NCBI GenBank assembly: GCA_026416845.1
Contig: JAOAEL010000002.1
Span: forward strand, 1 to 42,468
DNA: 42,468 nucleotides
DNA from: Patescibacteria group bacterium
GTDB taxonomy: Bacteria > Patescibacteriota > Microgenomatia > UBA8517
Direction: 5' to 3'
Position 1 is the stretch's first letter. Each line of letters begins with the position of its first letter. The position numbers were made by a program, and so were the translations under genes. The notes under the pieces were generated by a model. The model worked only from the letters and a program-made list of their open reading frames with translations. It ran no database searches and had not been told where the DNA came from. This document shows positions 12,184 through 19,567 of the stretch, piece by piece.

Positions 12184-13533
12184 ATGGATAAAAAATTATT
12201 AGAGCCGTTTTTAGAAATACTAAAAATCCCAAGTATTTCAACATTGGCTAAACACAAAAGTGACATGCAAAAAGCAAGAAAGTATTTACTATATCTTTTT
12301 GATTCTTTAGGGTTTAAAACAGAAACACTAAAATGCAAATCTCACGATGCTATATTTGCATCTTTAGAAGTGGATAGTAAACTGCCTACAATATTAATTT
12401 ATGGTCATTATGATGTGCAACCCGCAGATCCTTTAGATGAATGGGGAACGCCACCGTTTGAGCCAACTATTATAGACAACAAAGTCTACGCTCGCGGAGC
12501 AACCGACAACAAAGGTCAATTCATGGCACACATAATGGCGCTTAAAAAACTTATGTTTCAAAAAATTGATTTGACCGCAAATATCAAATTTATCATAGAA
12601 GGCGAAGAAGAAATTGGATCAATAAGTGTTACAGATCTAACAAAAAAATACTCAAAAGCTTTGTTTAAGTGCGATTTTCTTGTTGTTTCTGATACAGAAA
12701 TGTATAAAGAGGGATTGCCCTCTATAGATACAAGCTTGCGCGGACTTTTGTATACAGAAATTACTCTCCAAACCGCGAAGCAAGATTTACACTCAGGACA
12801 ATTTGGTGGCATAGCAGAAAATCCTATAAACATGCTCGCTTATTTAATTACCAAAATAAAAGATAAAAATGGCAAAATTTTAATACCAGGTTTTTACGAA
12901 AATGTTTGTTCTCCCTCAGAAACAGAACTAAAAAATTACGAAAAATTAAAAACAAAAGAAAAAGATTTAATAAACGAAGGACAAATGTATTGCCTTGGAG
13001 GCGGAGAAAAAGAATACAGTCTAAATGAAAGAAGATGGAGCAGGCCTACTTGTGATGTTAATGGAATATTTGGAGGATATACTCAAGAGGGAAGCAAAAC
13101 AATAATCCCTTCAAAAGCAAGCGCTAAAATAAGCTTCAGGCTCGTGCCAAATCAGGATCCAAAGGACATTTACCAAAAATTTGTGAAACATGTCAAAAAT
13201 ATAGTACCAAAAAATATTAAATTGAAAGTCAAAGAGCATGCTTCAGCGCTTCCTTACAAAGCGCCCATTAATCATCCAGTATACGAAATAATGAAAAAGA
13301 GCCTAAAAAAAGTCTGGGGAAAAGAACCAGTATATACTGGAGTGGGAGGATCTATAGGCTTTGTTCCGGTGCTTGCTCAAACTTTAAATGTCCCGTGCCT
13401 CATGGTAGGCTTTGGACTTCCGGATGACAATTTGCATGCACCAAACGAACGATTTAATCTAACAAACTACTTTAACGCAATAGACACAATGGTAGAGTTT
13501 TACAAAAACCTTTCACAACTAAAACATAATTAA
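12184..13533 (+). CDS. M20/M25/M40 metallo-dipeptidase
   Basis: YGHYDVQP, ARGATDNKG, EGEEEIGS, DLHSG, GGSIG, HAPNE. Confidence 0.92.
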   Translation: MDKKLLEPFLEILKIPSISTLAKHKSDMQKARKYLLYLFDSLGFKTETLKCKSHDAIFASLEVDSKLPTILIYGHYDVQPADPLDEWGTPPFEPTIIDNKVYARGATDNKGQFMAHIMALKKLMFQKIDLTANIKFIIEGEEEIGSISVTDLTKKYSKALFKCDFLVVSDTEMYKEGLPSIDTSLRGLLYTEITLQTAKQDLHSGQFGGIAENPINMLAYLITKIKDKNGKILIPGFYENVCSPSETELKNYEKLKTKEKDLINEGQMYCLGGGEKEYSLNERRWSRPTCDVNGIFGGYTQEGSKTIIPSKASAKISFRLVPNQDPKDIYQKFVKHVKNIVPKNIKLKVKEHASALPYKAPINHPVYEIMKKSLKKVWGKEPVYTGVGGSIGFVPVLAQTLNVPCLMVGFGLPDDNLHAPNERFNLTNYFNAIDTMVEFYKNLSQLKHN

Positions 13534-13582
13534 TAAAATATTAAGGGCTACAAATACAATCTGTTATTATTTAAATAAAAAA

Positions 13583-14584
13583 ATGTTTGATAAAGCAGTT
13601 CAAAACATCATCAAAAACTGTCTTAGACTTTCAACAAAAGATCGCTTTGTTATTGTTTCCGATATAGCAAGACAAGACATCGGAAAATCAATTTATGAAA
13701 AAGCAAAAGAGGTATGCGAAACAAAAATATTTTTCATAGAAGAATTTACAAAACGGCCTGCAAAAGAATTTCCTACTGCTTTTGAGAAAGATATAACTAA
13801 ATTCATGCCAACCGCTTCTTTGTATGCAGCTACAGGCCAGGAAGGAGAATTGCCGCTCTTTAGATCAAAGCTCATTGCTCTATTAACTAAAAATCTTAAT
13901 TGCAGGCATGCCCACATGATTGGTGTAGATGAAAAAATTATGGAAACAGGAATGAGCATGGACTACTCGCTCATATACAAAGCGTCGCATAAGCTCTATG
14001 AAATATTAAAAAACGCAACAGAAATTGAAGTAAAAGATCCACATGGCACAAGTTTGAAAGCAAATTTCTCAAAAGAAATTAAATGGAAAGCAGATGATGG
14101 AGTGCCTCTTGATAATGGGCGTTGGTGCAATCTGCCAGCCGGAGAGGTATTTACTTGTCCTGTGTCGGTAAACGGTCAAATAGTCGCATGGGAGCTGGGG
14201 GATTATTTCTCTGAAAAATATGGAGTATTGAAAAATCCAATTATGATTTACATCAAAAACTCGTTTATAACAAATGTAAAAAGCAAAAACAAAAAACTTA
14301 AAGAGGAATTTGAGTCTTATGTGAAAAAGTATTCAAATGGCAATAGAGTGGGAGAGTTTGCTATAGGATGTCTTATGGGACTTGAGAAGTTGATAGGCAA
14401 TTTGCTTCAGGACGAAAAATTCCCCGGAGTTCACTTAGCTTTTGGACATCCGTATCCCGAAATGACAGGAGTACAAGATTGGAATTGTGAAAGTCACGTA
14501 GATGTCATACCTCTTAACGTATCTGCATTTGTTGACGGCAAAGAGATTTTAAAGAATAGAAAATTTACCATAGATTTAACTTGA
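13583..14584 (+). CDS. M29 (thermophilic metalloprotease family) aminopeptidase
   Basis: NLPAGEVFTCP, GEFAIG, DEKFPGVHLAFG, HVD. Confidence 0.88.
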   Translation: MFDKAVQNIIKNCLRLSTKDRFVIVSDIARQDIGKSIYEKAKEVCETKIFFIEEFTKRPAKEFPTAFEKDITKFMPTASLYAATGQEGELPLFRSKLIALLTKNLNCRHAHMIGVDEKIMETGMSMDYSLIYKASHKLYEILKNATEIEVKDPHGTSLKANFSKEIKWKADDGVPLDNGRWCNLPAGEVFTCPVSVNGQIVAWELGDYFSEKYGVLKNPIMIYIKNSFITNVKSKNKKLKEEFESYVKKYSNGNRVGEFAIGCLMGLEKLIGNLLQDEKFPGVHLAFGHPYPEMTGVQDWNCESHVDVIPLNVSAFVDGKEILKNRKFTIDLT

Positions 14585-14598
14585 TTATATTGCATAAT

Positions 14599-14627
14599 TT
14601 GACAAAAAAAAGTTCACAATGTAAAAT
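14599..14627 (+). promoter_or_regulatory. Sigma70-type promoter
   Basis: TTGACA (14599-14604), 17 nt, TAAAAT (14622-14627). Confidence 0.8.
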
Positions 14628-14636
14628 TTTAGCTTA

Positions 14637-14690
14637 ATGGAAGTACTTTTTTCTCTCAGCGCTATTTCCTTCCTCATTTGGGGAGGTTAA
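14637..14690 (+). CDS. Putative attenuator leader peptide MEVLFSLSAISFLIWGG (17 aa)
   Basis: ATG 9 nt after the -10 box; TAA (14688-90) lies inside the 1:2 hairpin just before segment 2. Confidence 0.55.
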   Translation: MEVLFSLSAISFLIWGG

Positions 14691-14756
14691 TGCGTGCTGA
14701 GAGGAAGTAAAAAACAAAACTAAAAAAGCAACCTCTCAGAAACGAGAGGTTTTTTG
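14644..14756 (+). promoter_or_regulatory. Four-segment transcription attenuator (1:2 / 2:3 / 3:4)
   Basis: CTCTCAGC (14653-60) pairs GCTGAGAG (14696-703); CTGAGAGG (14697-704) pairs CCTCTCAG (14731-38); AACCTCTC (14729-36) pairs GAGAGGTT (14743-50) followed by a T tract. Confidence 0.75.
14729..14756 (+). terminator. Intrinsic terminator (attenuator 3:4 hairpin) about 10 nt upstream of ATG 14766
   Basis: 8-bp stem, AGAAAC loop, T tract. Confidence 0.8.
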
Positions 14757-14765
14757 TTTTTAAAA

Positions 14766-17624
14766 ATGGAAACAAAAATACCAATTGCAGATCGAATAAC
14801 ATACGAAGCATGGGGGACAGAAGCTAATCCTCACAGTCCTTTATGGGGTATTGAAATTTTAAAGAAAAAAGGCGAAGGAATGTCTGGATTAATAATAAAA
14901 CCCGAAGAATTAAGCAAATTAAAAAATTTAGAAAGAAATTCAACACTTGAAACTTTAGCTACTCGATGGGCAACCGAATCGGTTAATCAACCATTAGATG
15001 GAAAAAAATGGGCATCATACGCCACTTCAGGAAGTGAAACAAACGGAAAGGAATTTTTGCAACTTTTGGCTTTAACAAAAGAACTTCATAAATACCACCC
15101 AAACGATACAGCAGGCATATATTTCATAGATACGGCAAGTCACAGCATGAGACCTCAATTTGAAACTGAAATAATGATGTATGCTGCTACAACAGGACTC
15201 TCTGCAGAAGAAATAAGAGAAGCATACTTCAGTTTATTTAAAGTTGACCTTAAATATATTGATAATTTTGCCAATAGAATTTCAACATCTGAAGAGCAAA
15301 GACAAAGAATCAATTTAAAATGGGCAGAAAGAGCCATACAACTTGATGTACCCGCAGATGCCATATTACTTCCTGAAAAAGAGAAATATATAGAATTCTG
15401 CCGAAAAGTGGGGATTTCAGAAGAAATAACCACTGCAATAGAAAAAGCTTTCGAATTTATAAAATCTAGAGATGATATCCCTAAAAGCTTAGGATCATTA
15501 AGATGTGCAATATTTACAGAAGTTTCTAACCTTATTATCAAAAAACTAGGCTTTCAATACCCGATCATAGCAGTACCATTTGATGAAGCTGCTATAAAAA
15601 CAGGATGGGGACAACTAACTATGAAAGAAATTAGAAGATTTTCTGCAGAAACATTTATTGATAGAGTTGCATACTATAATGTCTTGGAACCAGAAACAGG
15701 AATAGAAACGCCATTATACAACACTGACGAGGAAAATGAAAAAAAGAGGAAAGCGGATCGCAACCAAGAAACCAAAAATTCAATCCAATCATCTCTATCA
15801 AACTCACGCTATGATCATCTGACTTATGAAGCAATTATGAAACATGGCCATTTTAGCGGAATGGGATACTATCACTTTCTTCTAACAAACAGCATAGGGT
15901 CAATGGCTTTTGTGCTTGATAATTACGAAGCAGGAGGTCCACATGCACGCATAATAAGAGCAGCAATAGAAGGCAGATTTCAAAGCAAGGTTATTATGGT
16001 CGGTTATCCTCGCGGTTGGGTTAGGATTGCATCTTTTGTGGGAGATGAAAACTCTACATATGGAGCATCACCCCCAATTGAACTTTTAGCATCTGAAATT
16101 TTCAAAGACCCAAACGGCATTGGCAAAATAACTCAATACATAACTTTACTAAATCAAGGCATCGGGGATAATATGACAATTGCACTTGATACATTGGCAG
16201 AAGGTAGCCAATTATATATAATTCCAGACAACAGAAGATTTGCTACAAGCAAAATAAATACTCCGTTCTTGTTTGAAACTGATTTTGAAAAAGCGCTAGA
16301 AATATTAAACGTACTAAACGAATTCACAAAAACACCCAATTTACAAACATATTTACAAATTGCACAACTCGGTCTAGCAGAAATTGACTCAGAAATTGAA
16401 AAACTTGCGACTTTAAACAAAGAGTTGGCAGAAATAACCACCTGCTTAGAGGAGAAAAGCCAAGAATTTTTAGATAGATACAAAGTTCAAATTACAAGAT
16501 ATTTCACAAATAGACAAATTGCTATATCAAGAGCACTAAATCTAATGGGTAAATCATTCTTAGATGATGAAAATGGCCAAAGAACATTGCCCGTTGTGAT
16601 AGAAACACCCCAAGAAATACAAGAACATCAAACACAAAAAAATGCAAAGCAAGCTCAAATAATTTCAGATTGGATGTATTTGAAAGCTAGAAAAATAGTT
16701 GAATCCTCCAGCAACAGACAAAATATAAATGAAAAATCACCCTTATACTTAACATATCAGTCTGTGACCAAACTGATAGAAATTATTTCAACATTTCAAA
16801 AAGCAGAATCTGCAAAAAAATGTGCAAATTCTTTGATAAAAGCATGGGAAAACAATCACAGCAAACTAGCTGAAGCGATCAATTGTTTAAACAGTGACCA
16901 AAATACACAAGATCAAGCAGTAAATAGTTTCATTGCAATGTTCAAAGAATTGATTGCACAAGGACATACATTAGATTTGCACAACATTTTAAGTGACCCA
17001 GCAACTCTACTTCAAATCTTGCAATCTACAACTGAATTCATCAACACAACCAAGAAAAAATTAATAATTGAATATGGACTAGTTGAAGAAAAAGGCGAAA
17101 TCAAGAAAGGCGAGTTGGAGAAAACATTAAAATTGGCATCTGAAATTCGCAGAACAATTGATGCATTCTGCTCCACAAATTACGAAAGTGAACTAGCTGA
17201 TAAAATATCAGCTATTGGCCAAAATTGCACAATATCTAATTTACATGAACTCTGTTTAAGCTTCTGCATGGAAAAAGCCTCAGAAATCTCATCCATAGTA
17301 CGTGGCAAAACCGGAGACGAAAACAAACCAAGATTTGCAAATTCAAGAAATGCTTTGGATTACGCAGAAAGATTTGCACAAACTTATCAAAGAATCCAAA
17401 ACTTTAAATCTACAGTAAGGAGAATCTGGACTGAACTCAACACAAACGATAATTCACTAGAAGAATACCTAAATGCCTATCGCCAACACTTAGAAGAATT
17501 AGATCCTCTTATAGCAAAACGTAACGAAACTCAATCTAGCATAGCTAAACTTAAAGAAGAAGCTGAAAAAATAATAATGAAAACAAGAGAAAAACTCGCC
17601 AAAACTGTTATAATCATAAAATAA
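14766..17624 (+). CDS. Large hypothetical protein (952 aa): N-terminal alpha/beta region, C-terminal helical/coiled-coil region
   Basis: Long ORF; ATG 14766 preferred over TTG 14754, which lies in the terminator T tract; no TM segment and no family recognised. Confidence 0.85.
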   Translation: METKIPIADRITYEAWGTEANPHSPLWGIEILKKKGEGMSGLIIKPEELSKLKNLERNSTLETLATRWATESVNQPLDGKKWASYATSGSETNGKEFLQLLALTKELHKYHPNDTAGIYFIDTASHSMRPQFETEIMMYAATTGLSAEEIREAYFSLFKVDLKYIDNFANRISTSEEQRQRINLKWAERAIQLDVPADAILLPEKEKYIEFCRKVGISEEITTAIEKAFEFIKSRDDIPKSLGSLRCAIFTEVSNLIIKKLGFQYPIIAVPFDEAAIKTGWGQLTMKEIRRFSAETFIDRVAYYNVLEPETGIETPLYNTDEENEKKRKADRNQETKNSIQSSLSNSRYDHLTYEAIMKHGHFSGMGYYHFLLTNSIGSMAFVLDNYEAGGPHARIIRAAIEGRFQSKVIMVGYPRGWVRIASFVGDENSTYGASPPIELLASEIFKDPNGIGKITQYITLLNQGIGDNMTIALDTLAEGSQLYIIPDNRRFATSKINTPFLFETDFEKALEILNVLNEFTKTPNLQTYLQIAQLGLAEIDSEIEKLATLNKELAEITTCLEEKSQEFLDRYKVQITRYFTNRQIAISRALNLMGKSFLDDENGQRTLPVVIETPQEIQEHQTQKNAKQAQIISDWMYLKARKIVESSSNRQNINEKSPLYLTYQSVTKLIEIISTFQKAESAKKCANSLIKAWENNHSKLAEAINCLNSDQNTQDQAVNSFIAMFKELIAQGHTLDLHNILSDPATLLQILQSTTEFINTTKKKLIIEYGLVEEKGEIKKGELEKTLKLASEIRRTIDAFCSTNYESELADKISAIGQNCTISNLHELCLSFCMEKASEISSIVRGKTGDENKPRFANSRNALDYAERFAQTYQRIQNFKSTVRRIWTELNTNDNSLEEYLNAYRQHLEELDPLIAKRNETQSSIAKLKEEAEKIIMKTREKLAKTVIIIK

Positions 17625-17625
17625 A

Positions 17626-18621
17626 ATGAACTACAACTTACTCAAAAAACTCTGTTTTGCACATGCTGTTACAGGAGATACTGACGAAATAAAAACAGTG
17701 CTCATAGAAGAACTCAAATCAAGGGGGATAGCTTTTTATAAAAACGGCTATGGCACGATTATTTTTGGAAACACAAAAAATCCACAAAAACTTATTGCCA
17801 GTCATATAGACGAAGTGGGATTTCAAATCACAAAAATTGAAGAAAACGGAAAAGTGAGAATTTTACCGGTGGGTTGGATATTCGCCAATAGACTCGACCA
17901 TGCGATTGTGTATGCACAAACGCAAAAAGGAAAAGTAACTGGAGTAATCTTGCATGAAGATGAACTGAAAACAGAAAATCTGACAAGTTTCAATTCCCTA
18001 TATCTTGATGTGGGCGTTGACACAAAAGACGAAGTCCAGAAATTAGGAATACAAGAGGGGCAAACCGGAAGTTACAAAAAAGAATTCATAGAAACCGAAC
18101 AAAATATTATAGCTTCAAGTTTGGATAACAAAGTCTCTCAATTTGCTGTATTTGAAATATTAGACCAAAATCCGGAATTCCTGGAGGAAAATATGTTTGC
18201 TTTTATCACTGATGAAGAAATGCAAGATCAAAGCGCAAATGGTATATGCGATTCATATAAGCCCGATCTTGCCATCGTGCTTGACTACTGTCCAATCCAT
18301 CAAAAAGTGGGAAATGCTGAAAGTTTGGGTGAAAGTGGCAAAGGACCGCTTGTGATGTATCGTGGAGGAGCGCACATAATACATGAAGATATAAGAAATT
18401 TTTTTGAAACAAAAATTAATCTGCCTTTTCAAAAAGGATTTTTATCCGCTGATACAGTTCATCAACTAGAACCTTTTAACTTCCAAAATAATGGACATAC
18501 AAAAGCCGTAAACGTATGCGTTCCGGCATTTGGATATCATGGCGCAGGGTACAGTTTAAGGAAAAAAGATATTTACGATTTTTGTAAGTTTCTGAAAGAA
18601 GTTATAAATCAAAAATTCTAA
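17626..18621 (+). CDS. M42 family aminopeptidase
   Basis: ASHIDEVG, SLDNK, TDEE, C-terminal GYH; starts 1 nt after the upstream stop. Confidence 0.85.
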   Translation: MNYNLLKKLCFAHAVTGDTDEIKTVLIEELKSRGIAFYKNGYGTIIFGNTKNPQKLIASHIDEVGFQITKIEENGKVRILPVGWIFANRLDHAIVYAQTQKGKVTGVILHEDELKTENLTSFNSLYLDVGVDTKDEVQKLGIQEGQTGSYKKEFIETEQNIIASSLDNKVSQFAVFEILDQNPEFLEENMFAFITDEEMQDQSANGICDSYKPDLAIVLDYCPIHQKVGNAESLGESGKGPLVMYRGGAHIIHEDIRNFFETKINLPFQKGFLSADTVHQLEPFNFQNNGHTKAVNVCVPAFGYHGAGYSLRKKDIYDFCKFLKEVINQKF

Positions 18622-18781
18622 GCTTTCTTTTGCTTTGGACACCAAATTGATTTGGCCTAAGTATTACAAAAATGATTCACAAATTTGTTGCTTTTAAGAT
18701 GTAGATAGAAACAATCTTTAATCAAATTAAAAATAACTTCTAAACCAATCAAAATAAAACATTTTTTAGTTAAATATTCTT

Positions 18782-19567
18782 ATGTCAGAAAGGAAAATAT
18801 GTAATTTGTGCCCTTTGGAGAAAAGGTGCTCAAAAACGCTGGAAATAAATAGATTAGAAATCTCAAAATTCTTGGACGCTTTCGAGAATGCTTATCCTAA
18901 TCAACTTGAAATTGCAAGCTTGGAAAACAACCGAATATTAACATATACTACCTCGTCATCTGACAAGATAAATAGAAGAAAGAGAATAGAAAAATGGCTT
19001 TTAAATGGAAATTTTACAAATGATGGTTTTGCATATTATCTAGAATTTCTCTTGGCTCAATTAATAAAACAAATATTAAAAGAAAAAAACTTCCACGATA
19101 TACAAGTTGAATTAACTCCAACAGAGCTTGATTGTGTACACAAAGGAAATGGCAATGGCGGAGATGTGATTGTCATACAAGGAAAATATCCATTGGTTAT
19201 TATAGATATAACTATTGGAAGTCTTTCAAAAAAACAAAATCTTGGCATACATTACCCAACTGGATCCCCAGTCATTCAATTCTCAATTAAACAAAATATT
19301 GAAGATGAAATTTGTTATAGAACAGCTCCAGAATTGATAAACAATTTTTCTATACAATCTATAAACCAAGGTTTATATCTTCTAAATGGAGGAGCATTTT
19401 ACCTGCCAAACAAACATTTAAAGTTACTCAAGCGTTTATTTAAAGAACCTATTCTCACAGCAGCAGAGAAAACATTACAAAAAATACAAACTATCAGTCC
19501 CAAATCTGCAACATGTCAAGCAATAATAAGAAGTCATAGCTTACTAACTTTGATTTTTGAATCCTGA
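18782..19567 (+). CDS. Hypothetical protein, possible PD-(D/E)XK nuclease fold
   Basis: Helix with E (YLEFLLAQ), GGDVIV, IIDIT; N-terminal CxxC...C. Confidence 0.4.
   Translation: MSERKICNLCPLEKRCSKTLEINRLEISKFLDAFENAYPNQLEIASLENNRILTYTTSSSDKINRRKRIEKWLLNGNFTNDGFAYYLEFLLAQLIKQILKEKNFHDIQVELTPTELDCVHKGNGNGGDVIVIQGKYPLVIIDITIGSLSKKQNLGIHYPTGSPVIQFSIKQNIEDEICYRTAPELINNFSIQSINQGLYLLNGGAFYLPNKHLKLLKRLFKEPILTAAEKTLQKIQTISPKSATCQAIIRSHSLLTLIFES

Follow-up and report, generated by a model that had tools for sequence, protein, structure and literature searches.

The region immediately upstream of a gene for a 952-residue orphan protein is very probably a ribosome-mediated (leader-peptide) transcription attenuator of the trp/leu/ilv type. 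The locus was studied within the window, i.e., the whole 42,468-nucleotide stretch of Patescibacteria DNA analyzed here, for which an initial annotation had already proposed trp/his-type attenuation. This reading is strengthened by the conserved leader ORF with its reading phase and stop position, the covariation of the helices, the match between leader composition and downstream pathway, and the folding simulation. The mechanism itself is already known; the family of switches is absent from Rfam and without a report in the searchable literature, where its occurrence in this phylum is likewise undescribed.

Promoter, Leader ORF and Competing Helices

The consensus promoter and the near-leaderless upstream ORF proposed earlier are both borne out (Table 1). 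The −35 and −10 boxes, separated by 17 nt, match the consensus at 11 of 12 positions, and in a scan of positions 13000–19000 this element (14599–14627) is the top-scoring promoter-like site on the + strand. The leader ATG lies 9 nt 3′ of the −10 box, and the transcription start is expected at approximately 14634–14637; consequently, the ORF, which has no SD sequence, is predicted to be leaderless or nearly so. Its 17 codons include 3 Leu, 3 Ser, 2 Ile, 2 Phe, 1 Val and 1 Trp, with no run of a single amino acid, and the hydrophobic content is partly forced because the pyrimidine-rich arm has to pair with GAGAGG. A second mini-ORF, MRAERK (ATG at 14691, behind a strong SD-like GGGGAGG), was considered as the leader and rejected, its frame not being kept in the orthologous leaders L011, L012 and L013.

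Table 1. Features of the leader region and of the genes that follow it
Feature	Position	Strand	Basis and remarks
−35 box TTGACA	14599–14604	+	11/12 promoter match (−35 and −10 together)
−10 box TAAAAT	14622–14627	+	spacer to −35 of 17 nt
Leader ORF MEVLFSLSAISFLIWGG, 17 codons + TAA	14637–14690	+	TAA at 14688–14690; no SD
Segment 1, 5′ arm of the anti-antiterminator helix P1	14651–14666	+	fold; helix 1 covariation; spans leader codons 5–10
P1 apical hairpin CUUCCUC-AUUU-GGGGAGG	14669–14686	+	fold; spans leader codons 11–17
Segment 2, 3′ arm of P1	14689–14705	+	fold; core CUGAGAGG (14697–14704) can alternatively pair with segment 3
A-rich unstructured linker	14710–14729	+	fold; in every family member, length variable
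Segment 3 CCUCUCAG	14732–14739	+	terminator 5′ arm + first two loop bases; antiterminator partner of segment 2
Intrinsic terminator	14730–14761	+	stem 14730–14737/14744–14751, loop AGAAAC, U tract 14750–14761
Predicted regulated gene 1, 952-aa orphan protein	14766–17624	+	ATG 4 nt after U tract; no SD, no own promoter
Predicted regulated gene 2, M42 aminopeptidase	17626–18621	+	PF05343, 3.6e-39; begins 1 nt after orphan stop

The RNA spanning 14634–14765 folds with an energy of −49.9 kcal/mol (z = −7.9 against 200 shuffles). The initial annotation had described three mutually exclusive helices of 8 bp each. Two of them have this length: the antiterminator, in which CTGAGAGG (14697–14704) is complementary without mismatch to CCTCTCAG (14732–14739), and the GC-rich terminator stem, which is followed by TTTTTTGTTTTT. 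Helix 1:2, in contrast, comprises about 27 bp once the apical stem (14669–14675 paired with 14680–14686) is included. The stop codon at 14688 sits 6–9 nt 5′ of segment 2.

The antiterminator and the terminator are equally stable (−11.4 vs −11.3 kcal/mol). At equilibrium, the full-length transcript prefers the terminator in all cases, even with a masked ribosome, and the attenuator model therefore depends on kinetics. Classical attenuators likewise favor the terminator at equilibrium and form the antiterminator only cotranscriptionally. In the masked-fold simulation, the antiterminator comes out as the best fold only if the ribosome occupies codons 9–13 and the RNA has emerged to 14740–14745; a ribosome at the stop codon leads to termination, and a stall at or before codon 13 leads to antitermination. 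The former outcome agrees with the earlier statement that a ribosome at 14688–14690 lets the terminator form. The geometry proposed for a stalled ribosome is also reproduced, with stalls at or before codon 13 giving the antiterminated state.

According to the proposed mechanism, transcription would begin at the consensus promoter, a few bases 5′ of the AUG of the leader ORF. On a leader devoid of ribosomes, segment 1 would pair with segment 2, the terminator (14730–14751, with its U tract) would form, and the transcript would end about 10 nt 5′ of the orphan gene. A ribosome moving smoothly to the stop codon would cover the 5′ part of segment 2, so that the terminator would again form and transcription would stop. 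If, instead, the ribosome stalled with roughly codons 9–13 in the A site (A I S F L in this leader; Leu, Ile and Phe family-wide), it would hide segment 1 and free segment 2, which could then pair with the 5′ arm and loop of the terminator before its 3′ arm is made. RNA polymerase would thus continue into the orphan and M42 aminopeptidase genes. The signal would most likely be a low level of aminoacylated tRNA for hydrophobic residues, namely Leu, Ile and Phe.

The terminator lies just before the start codon of the orphan, as described earlier, with the ATG at 14766 and not at 14767. The region between 14628 and 15146 on the + strand contains no promoter-like site, and after the terminator there is no room for one; a separate promoter there would have spoken against the initial reading. 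The orphan has no match in Pfam, NCBIfam or PDB sequences; its AlphaFold model (pLDDT 69.6) returned only generic long-helix matches with E > 0.01 in a Foldseek comparison with the PDB, and hence no fold match. Among 5.8 billion proteins, only four homologues were found, three of them full-length and one a C-terminal fragment without a leader, and protein-pattern scans of genome and metagenome contigs yielded no others. The position and family of the second gene fit the peptidase-linked operon of the initial annotation.

Conservation and Spread of the Leader Family

The three full-length homologues of the orphan (40% identity; L011, L012 and L013) all have the same type of leader, with the promoter, an ORF of 17–18 codons, all three segments and a terminator that runs up to the start codon. 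The orphan–M42 pair follows the leader in each of them, and in another genome of the taxonomic family (L084) an M42 gene comes directly after a leader. The leader peptide had been described as novel. It is not a one-off but one member of a class-wide family: covariance-model matches occur in 61 of 125 genomes of the taxonomic family, 65 of 139 of the order and 116 of 401 sampled genomes of the class, the last figure being at least 116 for the presence of the switch. Outside the class only two genomes match, and almost none elsewhere in the phylum. A DNA pattern scan returned one true new copy (L020), a same-genus MAG that is 99% identical to the window (L038), and about 23 chance GC-rich matches. 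A supposed second leader copy in the window's own genome (C22:168489) is a false positive, consisting of the 3′ end of an L7/L12-like gene and its terminator. In the metagenomic copy L020, the element precedes a 52-residue ORF and a tRNA instead of the orphan.

Rfam searches of the whole window, and of 14500–14850 at E ≤ 10, gave no family above threshold, and the window as a whole gave only tRNAs; on 17 family loci, likewise, nothing but tRNAs reached threshold. In the window region, Phe_leader scores 23.1 bits against a cutoff of 55 and His_leader 19.4 against 49, weak sRNA matches are also subthreshold, and the T-box riboswitch models have no match in 14500–14850 even at E ≤ 10.

An ATG-initiated ORF crosses segment 1 in 105 of 106 unique copies, and the reading phase is kept in 83–90 of 105, with lengths that differ by multiples of three; the conservation of the upstream ORF, on which the initial annotation had made its reading depend, is thereby established. 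Of 102 members, 86 have an upstream match to the family promoter (TTGACA-N16–19-TAnnnT) that scores 9 of 12 or better, and its −10 box mostly lies 7–12 nt 5′ of the leader ATG. Only 5 of 105 leaders contain an SD-like 4-mer. The stop codon falls either 2–12 nt before segment 2 or 0–19 nt after its end, rarely within it, and is at least 22 nt 5′ of the terminator in all copies. The peptide itself appears free to drift: codon changes between close pairs comprise 40 nonsynonymous and 21 synonymous ones, and the two leader changes in the 99%-identical strain are both nonsynonymous. A coding test on the leaders gave no significant excess of changes at the third codon position. Drift of the peptide would follow if what counts is translation itself and not its product; the purifying selection that marks a type I toxin–antitoxin peptide or a micropeptide is not seen in these counts.

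Compensatory changes, the other comparative evidence called for at the outset, are found in all three helices, 1:2, 3:4 and 2:3. For P1 and the terminator together, the observed covariation score was reached by none of 500 shuffles, and slid controls were far lower. Within the apical hairpin model, both partners have changed in five of six pairs, and the share of paired cells is 96%; for the terminator the corresponding values are seven of eight pairs with compensatory changes and 98% of cells. The apical loop and the internal loops of P1 are not conserved in sequence. The duplex between segments 2 and 3 is stronger with the real than with the shuffled terminator loop in 90 of 106 copies (Wilcoxon p = 2e-15), and over the 106 copies cognate pairs are more stable than noncognate ones (−13.9 vs −10.2 kcal/mol; permutation p < 5e-4). 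Examples of covarying segment 2/segment 3 pairs are GUGGUGAGAG/CUCUCACCAC, GUGAUGAGAG/CUCUCAUCAC and GGUUUGGGAGG/CCUCCCAAACC. Since bases of the terminator loop that have no role in termination covary with segment 2, the antiterminator is supported.

The leader element is always immediately 5′ of a co-oriented ORF. In most copies this ORF begins 0–20 nt past the end of the match, just after the U tract, which leaves no space for a promoter of its own. Within the taxonomic family of the window, the downstream genes vary widely and for the most part lack annotation; where a Pfam match exists, it identifies an amino-acid enzyme or a peptidase.

Leader Composition and the Predicted Signal

The amino acid composition of the leaders follows the gene that they precede. 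Seven HMGL/LeuA genes are preceded by leaders with 6–7 Leu, including LLL(L) runs, and next to no Ile; all seven leaders come from one family (f38) and are orthologous to one another, and the p-values for the leader–pathway association therefore overstate independence. IlvD, IlvB and IlvE are preceded by Ile/Val-rich leaders, and the leader of PheA contains 7 Phe, 2 Tyr and 1 Trp. In one genome (G238) two types occur side by side, the Leu type in front of leuA and the Ile/Val type in front of ilvB.

For the copy in the window, the likely signal, judged from sequence comparison, is a shortage of charged Leu-, Ile- or Phe-tRNA and not of Trp-tRNA. The position of the Trp codon is occupied by W, R or M in the orthologous leaders, and because this codon is not conserved, Trp is not the likely signal. 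From the initial list (Trp, or Ser/Phe/Ile/Gly), Phe and Ile thus remain as candidates, Trp drops out, and Leu, which was missing from it, is added. No homologue of IlvB, IlvD, IlvE or PheA was detected in the genome that contains the window, which suggests that the organism is unable to make Leu, Ile and Phe. This genome also has an HMGL-like gene (on C44), which overlaps the gene upstream of it and lacks a leader. The notion of a new starvation-sensing system does not hold: same-class relatives have leuA, ilv and pheA under the same switch, and the locus therefore represents an old amino-acid attenuator that is reused here, not a new sensing principle.

Patescibacteria (CPR) are usually portrayed as organisms in which regulation is minimal and amino-acid synthesis scant. 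Within one class, at least 116 of the 401 genomes sampled have a switch of the textbook ribosome-sensing kind, which would give these organisms, which cannot yet be grown alone, a concrete and testable regulatory mechanism. A tentative reading, to which we assign somewhat less than an even chance, is that a single scaffold works class-wide as a programmable sensor of amino acids and was rewired from leuA/ilv/pheA to a scavenging regulon where synthesis was lost, as in the genome studied here. If this is true, M20 and M42 peptidases, aminotransferases, GCS2-like ligases, DUF6025 proteins and large orphans would be among the members of this regulon, and for dozens of dark-matter protein families codon content would supply the first indication of function ("induced by Leu/Ile/Phe-tRNA shortage"). 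By hinting at the inducer, it would place orphans, above all the 952-residue protein with its M42 partner, in the physiological context of hydrophobic amino-acid starvation. A single scaffold with swapped codon content also offers a natural experiment in the evolution of attenuator specificity. Should the system only repeat in another phylum what is known already, it would mainly benefit annotation, through one new RNA family and many miscalled or missed small ORFs.

Alternative Explanations and Known Attenuators

Leaders of the erm/cat/vmlR/bmrCD type respond to ribosome slowing, and the locus might similarly be a general translation-stress sensor that answers to such slowing from any cause, be it ribosome-targeting antibiotics, global starvation or a low supply of ribosomes, irrespective of the amino acid. 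The absence of a single-amino-acid run in the window leader, the diverse and mostly unannotated downstream genes of its own family, and the folding model, where any stall in codons 9–13 yields the antiterminator, would all suit this explanation. It is nonetheless improbable, given that the paralogous leaders are specialized (Leu runs with leuA, Ile/Val with ilvB/D/E, Phe with pheA) and that the annotated downstream genes include no resistance gene, ABC-F protein or efflux pump. Slightly less probable still is a translation-independent RNA switch, in which a ligand, a protein or a tRNA acting on P1 would shift the balance between helices 1:2 and 2:3 and the ORF would be a byproduct. P1 is indeed long, well conserved and covarying, base pairing dictates much of the peptide sequence, and the codon-position test was not significant. 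Against this stand the place of the ATG relative to the −10 box, the same in 105 of 106 copies, a phase that persists through indels, stop codons confined to two zones flanking segment 2, and a leader composition that tracks the pathway; moreover, there is no Rfam riboswitch or T-box match, and the loop sequences of P1 vary.

A very small chance is left for a free-standing small gene, in which a 120-nt RNA would encode a hydrophobic micropeptide (type I toxin-like or membrane) or act in trans as an sRNA, the orphan being expressed by leakage. The unit does come with a strong promoter and a terminator of its own, the encoded peptide is hydrophobic, the L020 copy does not precede the orphan, and an attenuator-derived sRNA and leader peptide with roles in trans are known (rnTrpL/peTrpL; PMC6614838, PMC7298713). 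However, the peptide sequences are poorly conserved, a simple gene end does not need a covarying antiterminator, most copies leave the next ORF no room for a promoter, and leader composition follows the downstream gene. A role of the leader RNA or peptide in trans may exist on top of attenuation. Equally slight is the chance of a plain terminator of the upstream tig–DUF5660–M20–M29 operon with constitutive, leaky read-through and a fortuitous alternative pairing. Between the M29-like gene, whose end is at 14584, and the leader there is no terminator, and transcripts arriving from upstream would therefore stop here; this explanation, however, leaves unaccounted for the dedicated consensus promoter, the conserved ORF, and the 2:3 pairing that covaries in more than 100 copies from many genomic contexts.

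Ribosome-mediated attenuation, the preferred reading, follows the same four-segment logic as the enterobacterial leu, ilvGMEDA, ilvBN, pheA, thr, his and trp attenuators, with mutually exclusive 1:2, 2:3 and 3:4 helices, a short ORF over segment 1, a stop codon by segment 2 and a terminator just before the first gene. Enrichment in the cognate amino acid is likewise shared by the Patescibacteria paralogues (Leu with leuA, Ile/Val with ilv, Phe with pheA). In contrast to the enterobacterial systems, the Patescibacteria leader ORF has no SD sequence and lies at or near the predicted 5′ end of the transcript, one scaffold (CCUCUC/GAGAGG terminator, GAGAG segment 2) is reused for different amino acids, and the genes in the window are an orphan and an aminopeptidase instead of a biosynthetic operon. 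The family has no sequence or structure homology with the enterobacterial Leu_leader, Phe_leader, His_leader, Thr_leader and Trp_leader models of Rfam.

Leader peptides whose translation starts, with no SD sequence, at the transcript's 5′ end are likewise predicted elsewhere, with 14 leaderless ones in Deinococcus deserti (PMC4007540) and candidate attenuators of trp, ilvB, leuS and leuA in Actinobacteria (PMC1262725). These were predicted by comparative genomics or transcriptomics, attenuate amino-acid biosynthesis or tRNA-synthetase genes, and belong to other phyla, with sequences unrelated to the present family. In the actinobacterial attenuators, several components are frequently absent or work at the level of translation (the LEU element pseudoknot), whereas the Patescibacteria copies are complete and covarying. 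A Leu-rich leader likewise attenuates branched-chain genes in another nonproteobacterial lineage, at the ilv-leu operon of Staphylococcus aureus (PMC5794164). That system is a single locus acting together with CodY, and its sequence is unrelated to the Patescibacteria family. The S. aureus leader ORF is SD-dependent.

T-box riboswitches also sense tRNA charging, each for one amino acid, through a choice between terminator and antiterminator. They bind uncharged tRNA directly and without translation, whereas the Patescibacteria element would sense it through the translating ribosome. They are likewise a modular family in which a few bases change specificity, and they often precede nonbiosynthetic genes such as synthetases and transporters.

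Architecture of the leader

The leader falls within a run of genes ordered trigger factor, DUF5660 protein, M20 dipeptidase, M29-like peptidase, leader, 952-aa orphan protein and M42 aminopeptidase, the last of which starts 1 nt past the orphan stop. Sequence inspection and RNA folding both recover the elements that the initial annotation had placed at 14599-14768, namely promoter, short ORF and three helices: 1:2 (P1, the anti-antiterminator), 2:3 (antiterminator) and 3:4 (intrinsic terminator). Helix 1:2 is indeed present, but it is far longer than the 8 bp claimed. The RNA spanning 14634-14765 folds at -49.9 kcal/mol, against a mean of -25.7 for shuffled sequences (z = -7.9). Segment 2, CUGAGAGG (14697-14704), is the perfect complement of CCUCUCAG (14732-14739), which comprises the terminator 5' arm and two loop bases. 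The leader ORF has no Shine-Dalgarno (SD) sequence. An Rfam search of the whole window returned three tRNAs and nothing else, and at E <= 10 the leader region gave sub-threshold noise only, with Phe_leader and His_leader below half their cut-offs.

Features of the window leader and of related loci (G, genome; C, contig; L, locus)
Feature	Position	Strand	Remarks
M29-like peptidase gene	13583-14584	+	5' border of leader intergenic stretch
-35 TTGACA	14599-14604	+	
-10 TAAAAT	14622-14627	+	17-nt spacer after -35; promoter match 11/12
Leader ORF, 17 codons, MEVLFSLSAISFLIWGG	ATG 14637 to TAA 14688-14690	+	ATG nine bases past -10 box
P1 hairpin	14651-14666 with 14689-14705	+	RNA fold
P1 tip, 7 bp	14669-14675 with 14680-14686	+	RNA fold
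A-rich linker	between P1 and terminator	+	
Terminator hairpin, GC-rich, 8-bp	14730-14751	+	followed by TTTTTTGTTTTT
Orphan start ATG	14766	+	
Clustered leader copies	G102:C9 15374/17196/24574		
Clustered leader copies	G084:C1 180763/183788		
Clustered leader copies	G073:C2 186787/193992		
Clustered leader copies	L114 121-257 and 544-674		
Clustered leader copies	L130 2367-2486 and 2501-2647		
Small first ORF	L020 788-943	-	
Small first ORF	L050 1299-1481	-	
Small first ORF	L060 1358-1498	-	
Small first ORF	L043 1268-1486	-	
Small first ORF	L057 1217-1489	-	
Small first ORFs, further loci	L051; L056; L059		
Phe-rich sub-type	L046 1501-1625		
Phe-rich sub-type	L055 2570-2688	-	
Phe-rich sub-type	L043 920-1030	-	

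Two further features of the stretch were observed. Within 14681-14711, a very strong SD-like run, GGGGAGG, which is the 3' arm of the apical stem, is followed by TTA (3 nt) and ATG 14691; the resulting six-codon frame, MRAERK, ends at TAA 14709-14711 within the P1 3' arm and was rejected as a candidate, being unconserved at the three loci with full-length orphan homologues. On the minus strand, too, the 14730-14751 hairpin is scored as a terminator (AACCTCTCGTTTCTGAGAGGTT then GCTTTTTTAG); both flanking genes lie on the plus strand.

The orphan itself has no match in Pfam, NCBIfam or PDB. Its structural model (pLDDT 69.6) combines an alpha/beta N-terminal half with a long-helix C-terminal half, the helices occupying the C-terminal 440 residues, and gives no significant fold match. 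A search of 5.8 billion proteins yielded four homologues only, three of them full-length at about 40% identity. The N-terminal half carries many invariant motifs (SGSETNGKE, YFIDTASH, GHFSGMGYY, DNYEAGGPH).

Conservation and distribution of the leader family

The same arrangement, consensus promoter included, precedes all three full-length orphan homologues (L011, L012, L013). These leaders keep the hydrophobic ORF of 17-18 codons (MKISFFLSILVIILIRGL, MKINFFLSILVIFLIRGL, MNLWILSLAFFILIMGM), the hairpin, a segment 2 containing GAGAG, and a CCUCUC/GAGAGG terminator abutting the downstream start codon. The single Trp codon, named earlier as one possible signal, fares differently: its position is occupied by Arg or Met in the orthologues, and Trp is therefore not a conserved sensor. 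In a same-genus relative 99% identical to the window, a MAG that bears the label 'Patescibacteria group bacterium', the leader ORF shows two changes, V3A and G17D, neither of them synonymous.

Scanning DNA for the pattern yielded one more copy, the metagenomic L020, with another gene set downstream and a 25-codon ORF that crosses segment 2. Six copies served to build a first covariance model (R1), which hit 61/125 genomes of the taxonomic family, in many cases at full length and with E values of 1e-10 to 1e-6. Its successor R2, built from 33 matches, was found in 65/139 genomes of the order and 116/401 of those sampled from the class. Of 401 genomes sampled across the phylum, only two outside the class matched, which also shows the specificity of the model. 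One true leader copy is present in the own genome; a second, weak match (C22:168489-168612, L070) is a false positive, in which an L7/L12-like gene ends (...KLKAAGATVEIK before the stop) and its terminator follows. Retrieval of 60 further loci gave 110 aligned matches, 106 of them unique. Several relatives carry two or three copies within a few kb, some directly in tandem, either as neighbouring genes each with its own attenuator or as two switches in series.

Across P1 and the terminator, 85.6% of alignment cells are paired, compared with 75% in column shuffles and about 50-58% with slid partners, figures favoured by an alignment fitted to the covariance model. Compensatory changes occur in 22 of the 29 pairs, and the observed covariation score is reached by 0/500 shuffles. 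Both the comparison with slid partners and the variety of pair types argue that the covariation of P1 and the terminator is real.

The antiterminator pairing 2:3 is absent from the covariance model. Segment 2 pairs with the terminator 5' arm and loop, and the loop bases, useless for termination, track segment 2: GUGGUGAGAG occurs with CUCUCACCAC, GUGAUGAGAG with CUCUCAUCAC, GUGGCGAGAG with CUCUCGC, GGUUUGGGAGG with CCUCCCAAACC, and UGGUUUGAGAG with CUCUCAAACCA. The 2:3 duplex averages -13.9 kcal/mol with real loops vs -11.1 with shuffled loops (stronger in 90/106 copies, Wilcoxon p = 2e-15) and vs -10.2 with the partners of other copies (permutation p < 5e-4), p-values that are inflated by relatedness, with at least five distinct compensated variants.

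An ATG ORF of 15-33 codons runs across segment 1 in 105/106 copies, with constant codon phase at the apical stem (83/105) and at segment 1 (90/105), and distances vary in threes. An upstream promoter matching at least 9/12 positions is found in 86 of 102 copies. Since the -10 box lies mostly 7-12 nt 5' of the leader ATG and SD-like 4-mers occur in 5/105 copies only, these ORFs appear leaderless or nearly so. The stop codon precedes segment 2 by 2-12 nt or follows its end by 0-19 nt, in a few copies falls within it, and is never less than 22 nt from the terminator, so that a ribosome ending translation there would cover segment 2 and leave the terminator free. In most copies the next ORF begins 0-20 nt past the match end, just beyond the U tract, which leaves no room there for the separate promoter that the initial annotation had named as an objection. 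Conservation of the peptide is weak (40 nonsynonymous and 21 synonymous codon changes in close pairs, in which no significant excess of third-position changes was found), a pattern consistent with translation of the leader, not its product, being what matters.

Predicted switching and matching of codons to pathways

Switching of the window copy was examined in masked folds, hiding a 28-nt ribosome footprint and including only the RNA emerged when the polymerase reaches the U tract. In the absence of a ribosome, P1 (-33.4 kcal/mol) forms and leaves segment 3 available to the terminator. When the A site is placed on codons 9-13 (GCU AUU UCC UUC CUC), the best fold contains the antiterminator, in which 14697-14704 pairs to 14732-14739; when it is placed on the stop codon, the antiterminator is absent. 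The antiterminator and terminator helices have the same stability (-11.4 and -11.3 kcal/mol), and on the complete transcript the terminator always wins, so the choice is kinetic, as in classical attenuation systems. In the proposed mechanism, a ribosome stalled at codons 9-13 would permit antitermination, one at the stop would not, and an untranslated leader would terminate through P1.

In the sensing stretch, this leader and the orthologous ones use mostly Ile, Leu, Phe and Ser codons; across the family the same stretch comprises 20% Leu, 17% Ile, 10% Ser and 10% Phe. For the window copy the hydrophobic residues Ile, Leu and Phe are candidate signals. CUC accounts for 3% of Leu codons in the own genome's long ORFs vs 40% in leaders, where it is also forced by pairing with GAG. 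Among the 37 tRNA genes (ARAGORN), tRNA-Leu is represented by CAA and UAG only; a rare, wobble-read Leu codon at the key position may sharpen the response, which is a suggestive point only.

The strongest argument for charged-tRNA supply as the signal comes from the genes behind the leaders, as a leader composition matching the pathway is the hallmark of amino-acid attenuators. Among 99 downstream ORFs examined by Pfam, those with a match are mostly amino-acid enzymes and peptidases: HMGL-like (seven copies, four with the LeuA allosteric domain), M20 peptidase (four), GCS2 and DUF6025 (three each), Aminotran_1_2 (two), and one copy each of dihydroxy-acid dehydratase, acetolactate-synthase-type TPP enzyme, class IV and class III aminotransferases, prephenate dehydratase with ACT, M42 peptidase and Asp/Glu racemase. 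All seven HMGL/LeuA leaders contain 6-7 Leu in LLL or LLLL runs and 0-1 Ile (e.g., MNMNLSNLSLLLLGEGEFVV, MRSNSLLNLALLLLGEV); the leaders before IlvD, IlvB, IlvE and PheA read MNSLFPSIIISIIVLISGQRFAWKKA, MIKNNLIILSVIVLAIVQGYSWEVIKARIKK, MKSISLIQIVNLIVNGA and MSKQSFQTFYFWFYFTDLKFGGIVLFKK, respectively. The Leu fraction is 0.37 in the LeuA group vs 0.16 in the rest (p = 3e-5), the seven loci being orthologous members of one family (f38) that count as one origin, and the Ile+Val fraction is 0.34 in the Ilv group vs 0.19 (p = 0.006). In the LeuA-type leaders the Leu run is kept while the remaining peptide has drifted. One genome, G238, supplies an internal contrast that eases this concern: its leuA follows a leader of the Leu type and its ilvB one of the Ile/Val type.

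Other associations recur. DUF6025 (L061, L064, L090), GCS2-like ligases (L044, L132) and M20 (L065, L057, L064, L067) are repeatedly found behind leaders, and an unusual pattern with His, Tyr, Phe, Trp and Lys, ..SH..Y.LPFWKA, is common to all four M20-linked leaders. About one third of the copies have a small ORF of 45-99 aa as the first one past the terminator, in many cases preceded by a strong GGAGG SD. Some of these are Cys-rich or zinc-ribbon-like (one L060 frame ends ...CPGCGQYVCTGLCCV). Pfam gives no match for the small ORFs, which may encode precursor peptides or small proteins that annotation has missed. A Phe-rich sub-type, whose ORF ends inside the apical loop (MIAIKNTFFVFFFTS, MVRTVRNFAFRFFFTF, MNATNNILFGFYFTS), precedes unannotated genes, and it resembles E. 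coli PheL.

Alternative readings, known systems and the host genome

The mixed composition of the window leader makes a general translation-stress sensor possible, a reading that leaves the specialised paralogues unexplained and finds no resistance gene among the annotated downstream genes. A translation-independent RNA switch would account for neither the invariant ATG, the conserved phase nor the stop positions. A free-standing gene for a micropeptide or an sRNA would leave unexplained why the antiterminator covaries, why ORFs abut the element and why the peptide drifts, and the weak peptide conservation, judged from codon changes, argues against a toxin or other functional micropeptide. A secondary trans role besides attenuation may nevertheless exist, as known for rnTrpL/peTrpL (PMC6614838, PMC7298713). 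A simple operon-end terminator would need neither a dedicated promoter nor an ORF, although the hairpin probably also ends transcripts from the upstream peptidase genes.

The proposed mechanism is textbook leader-peptide attenuation. The systems most alike in design are the leu, ilv and pheA leaders of enterobacteria, predicted leaderless leader peptides of Deinococcus deserti (PMC4007540), candidate attenuators of the leader-peptide type from Actinobacteria (PMC1262725) and, in the ilv-leu operon of S. aureus, a Leu-rich attenuator peptide (PMC5794164). None of them has sequence homology to the window family. Rfam 15 contains no model detecting this family, and a full-text literature search returned no paper tying Patescibacteria or CPR to leader-peptide attenuation. 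What is noteworthy is a single scaffold re-used across a class with its codon content swapped, and its deployment ahead of peptidase and orphan genes in a probable auxotroph.

The own genome (about 1.08 Mb, 33% G+C) contains no detected homologue of IlvB, IlvD, IlvE or PheA in its 97%-complete assembly, which suggests that the organism must import or release Leu, Ile and Phe. Its single, lone HMGL-like gene (LeuA/CimA-type, C44:55126-56376) is 32% identical to LeuA of a relative and has no leader. An aminopeptidase operon under a hydrophobic-codon attenuator would be a sensible starvation response.

The terminator arms also resemble translation signals: the 3' arm is SD-like (GAGAGG in this copy, within 14744-14768; GGGAGG in many relatives) and the 5' arm anti-SD-like (ACCUCUC/ACCUCCC). 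Formation of the antiterminator would leave the purine arm unpaired some 14 nt ahead of the orphan ATG, which lies 4 nt past the U tract and otherwise has no SD, so that the freed GAGAGG may add a translational layer.
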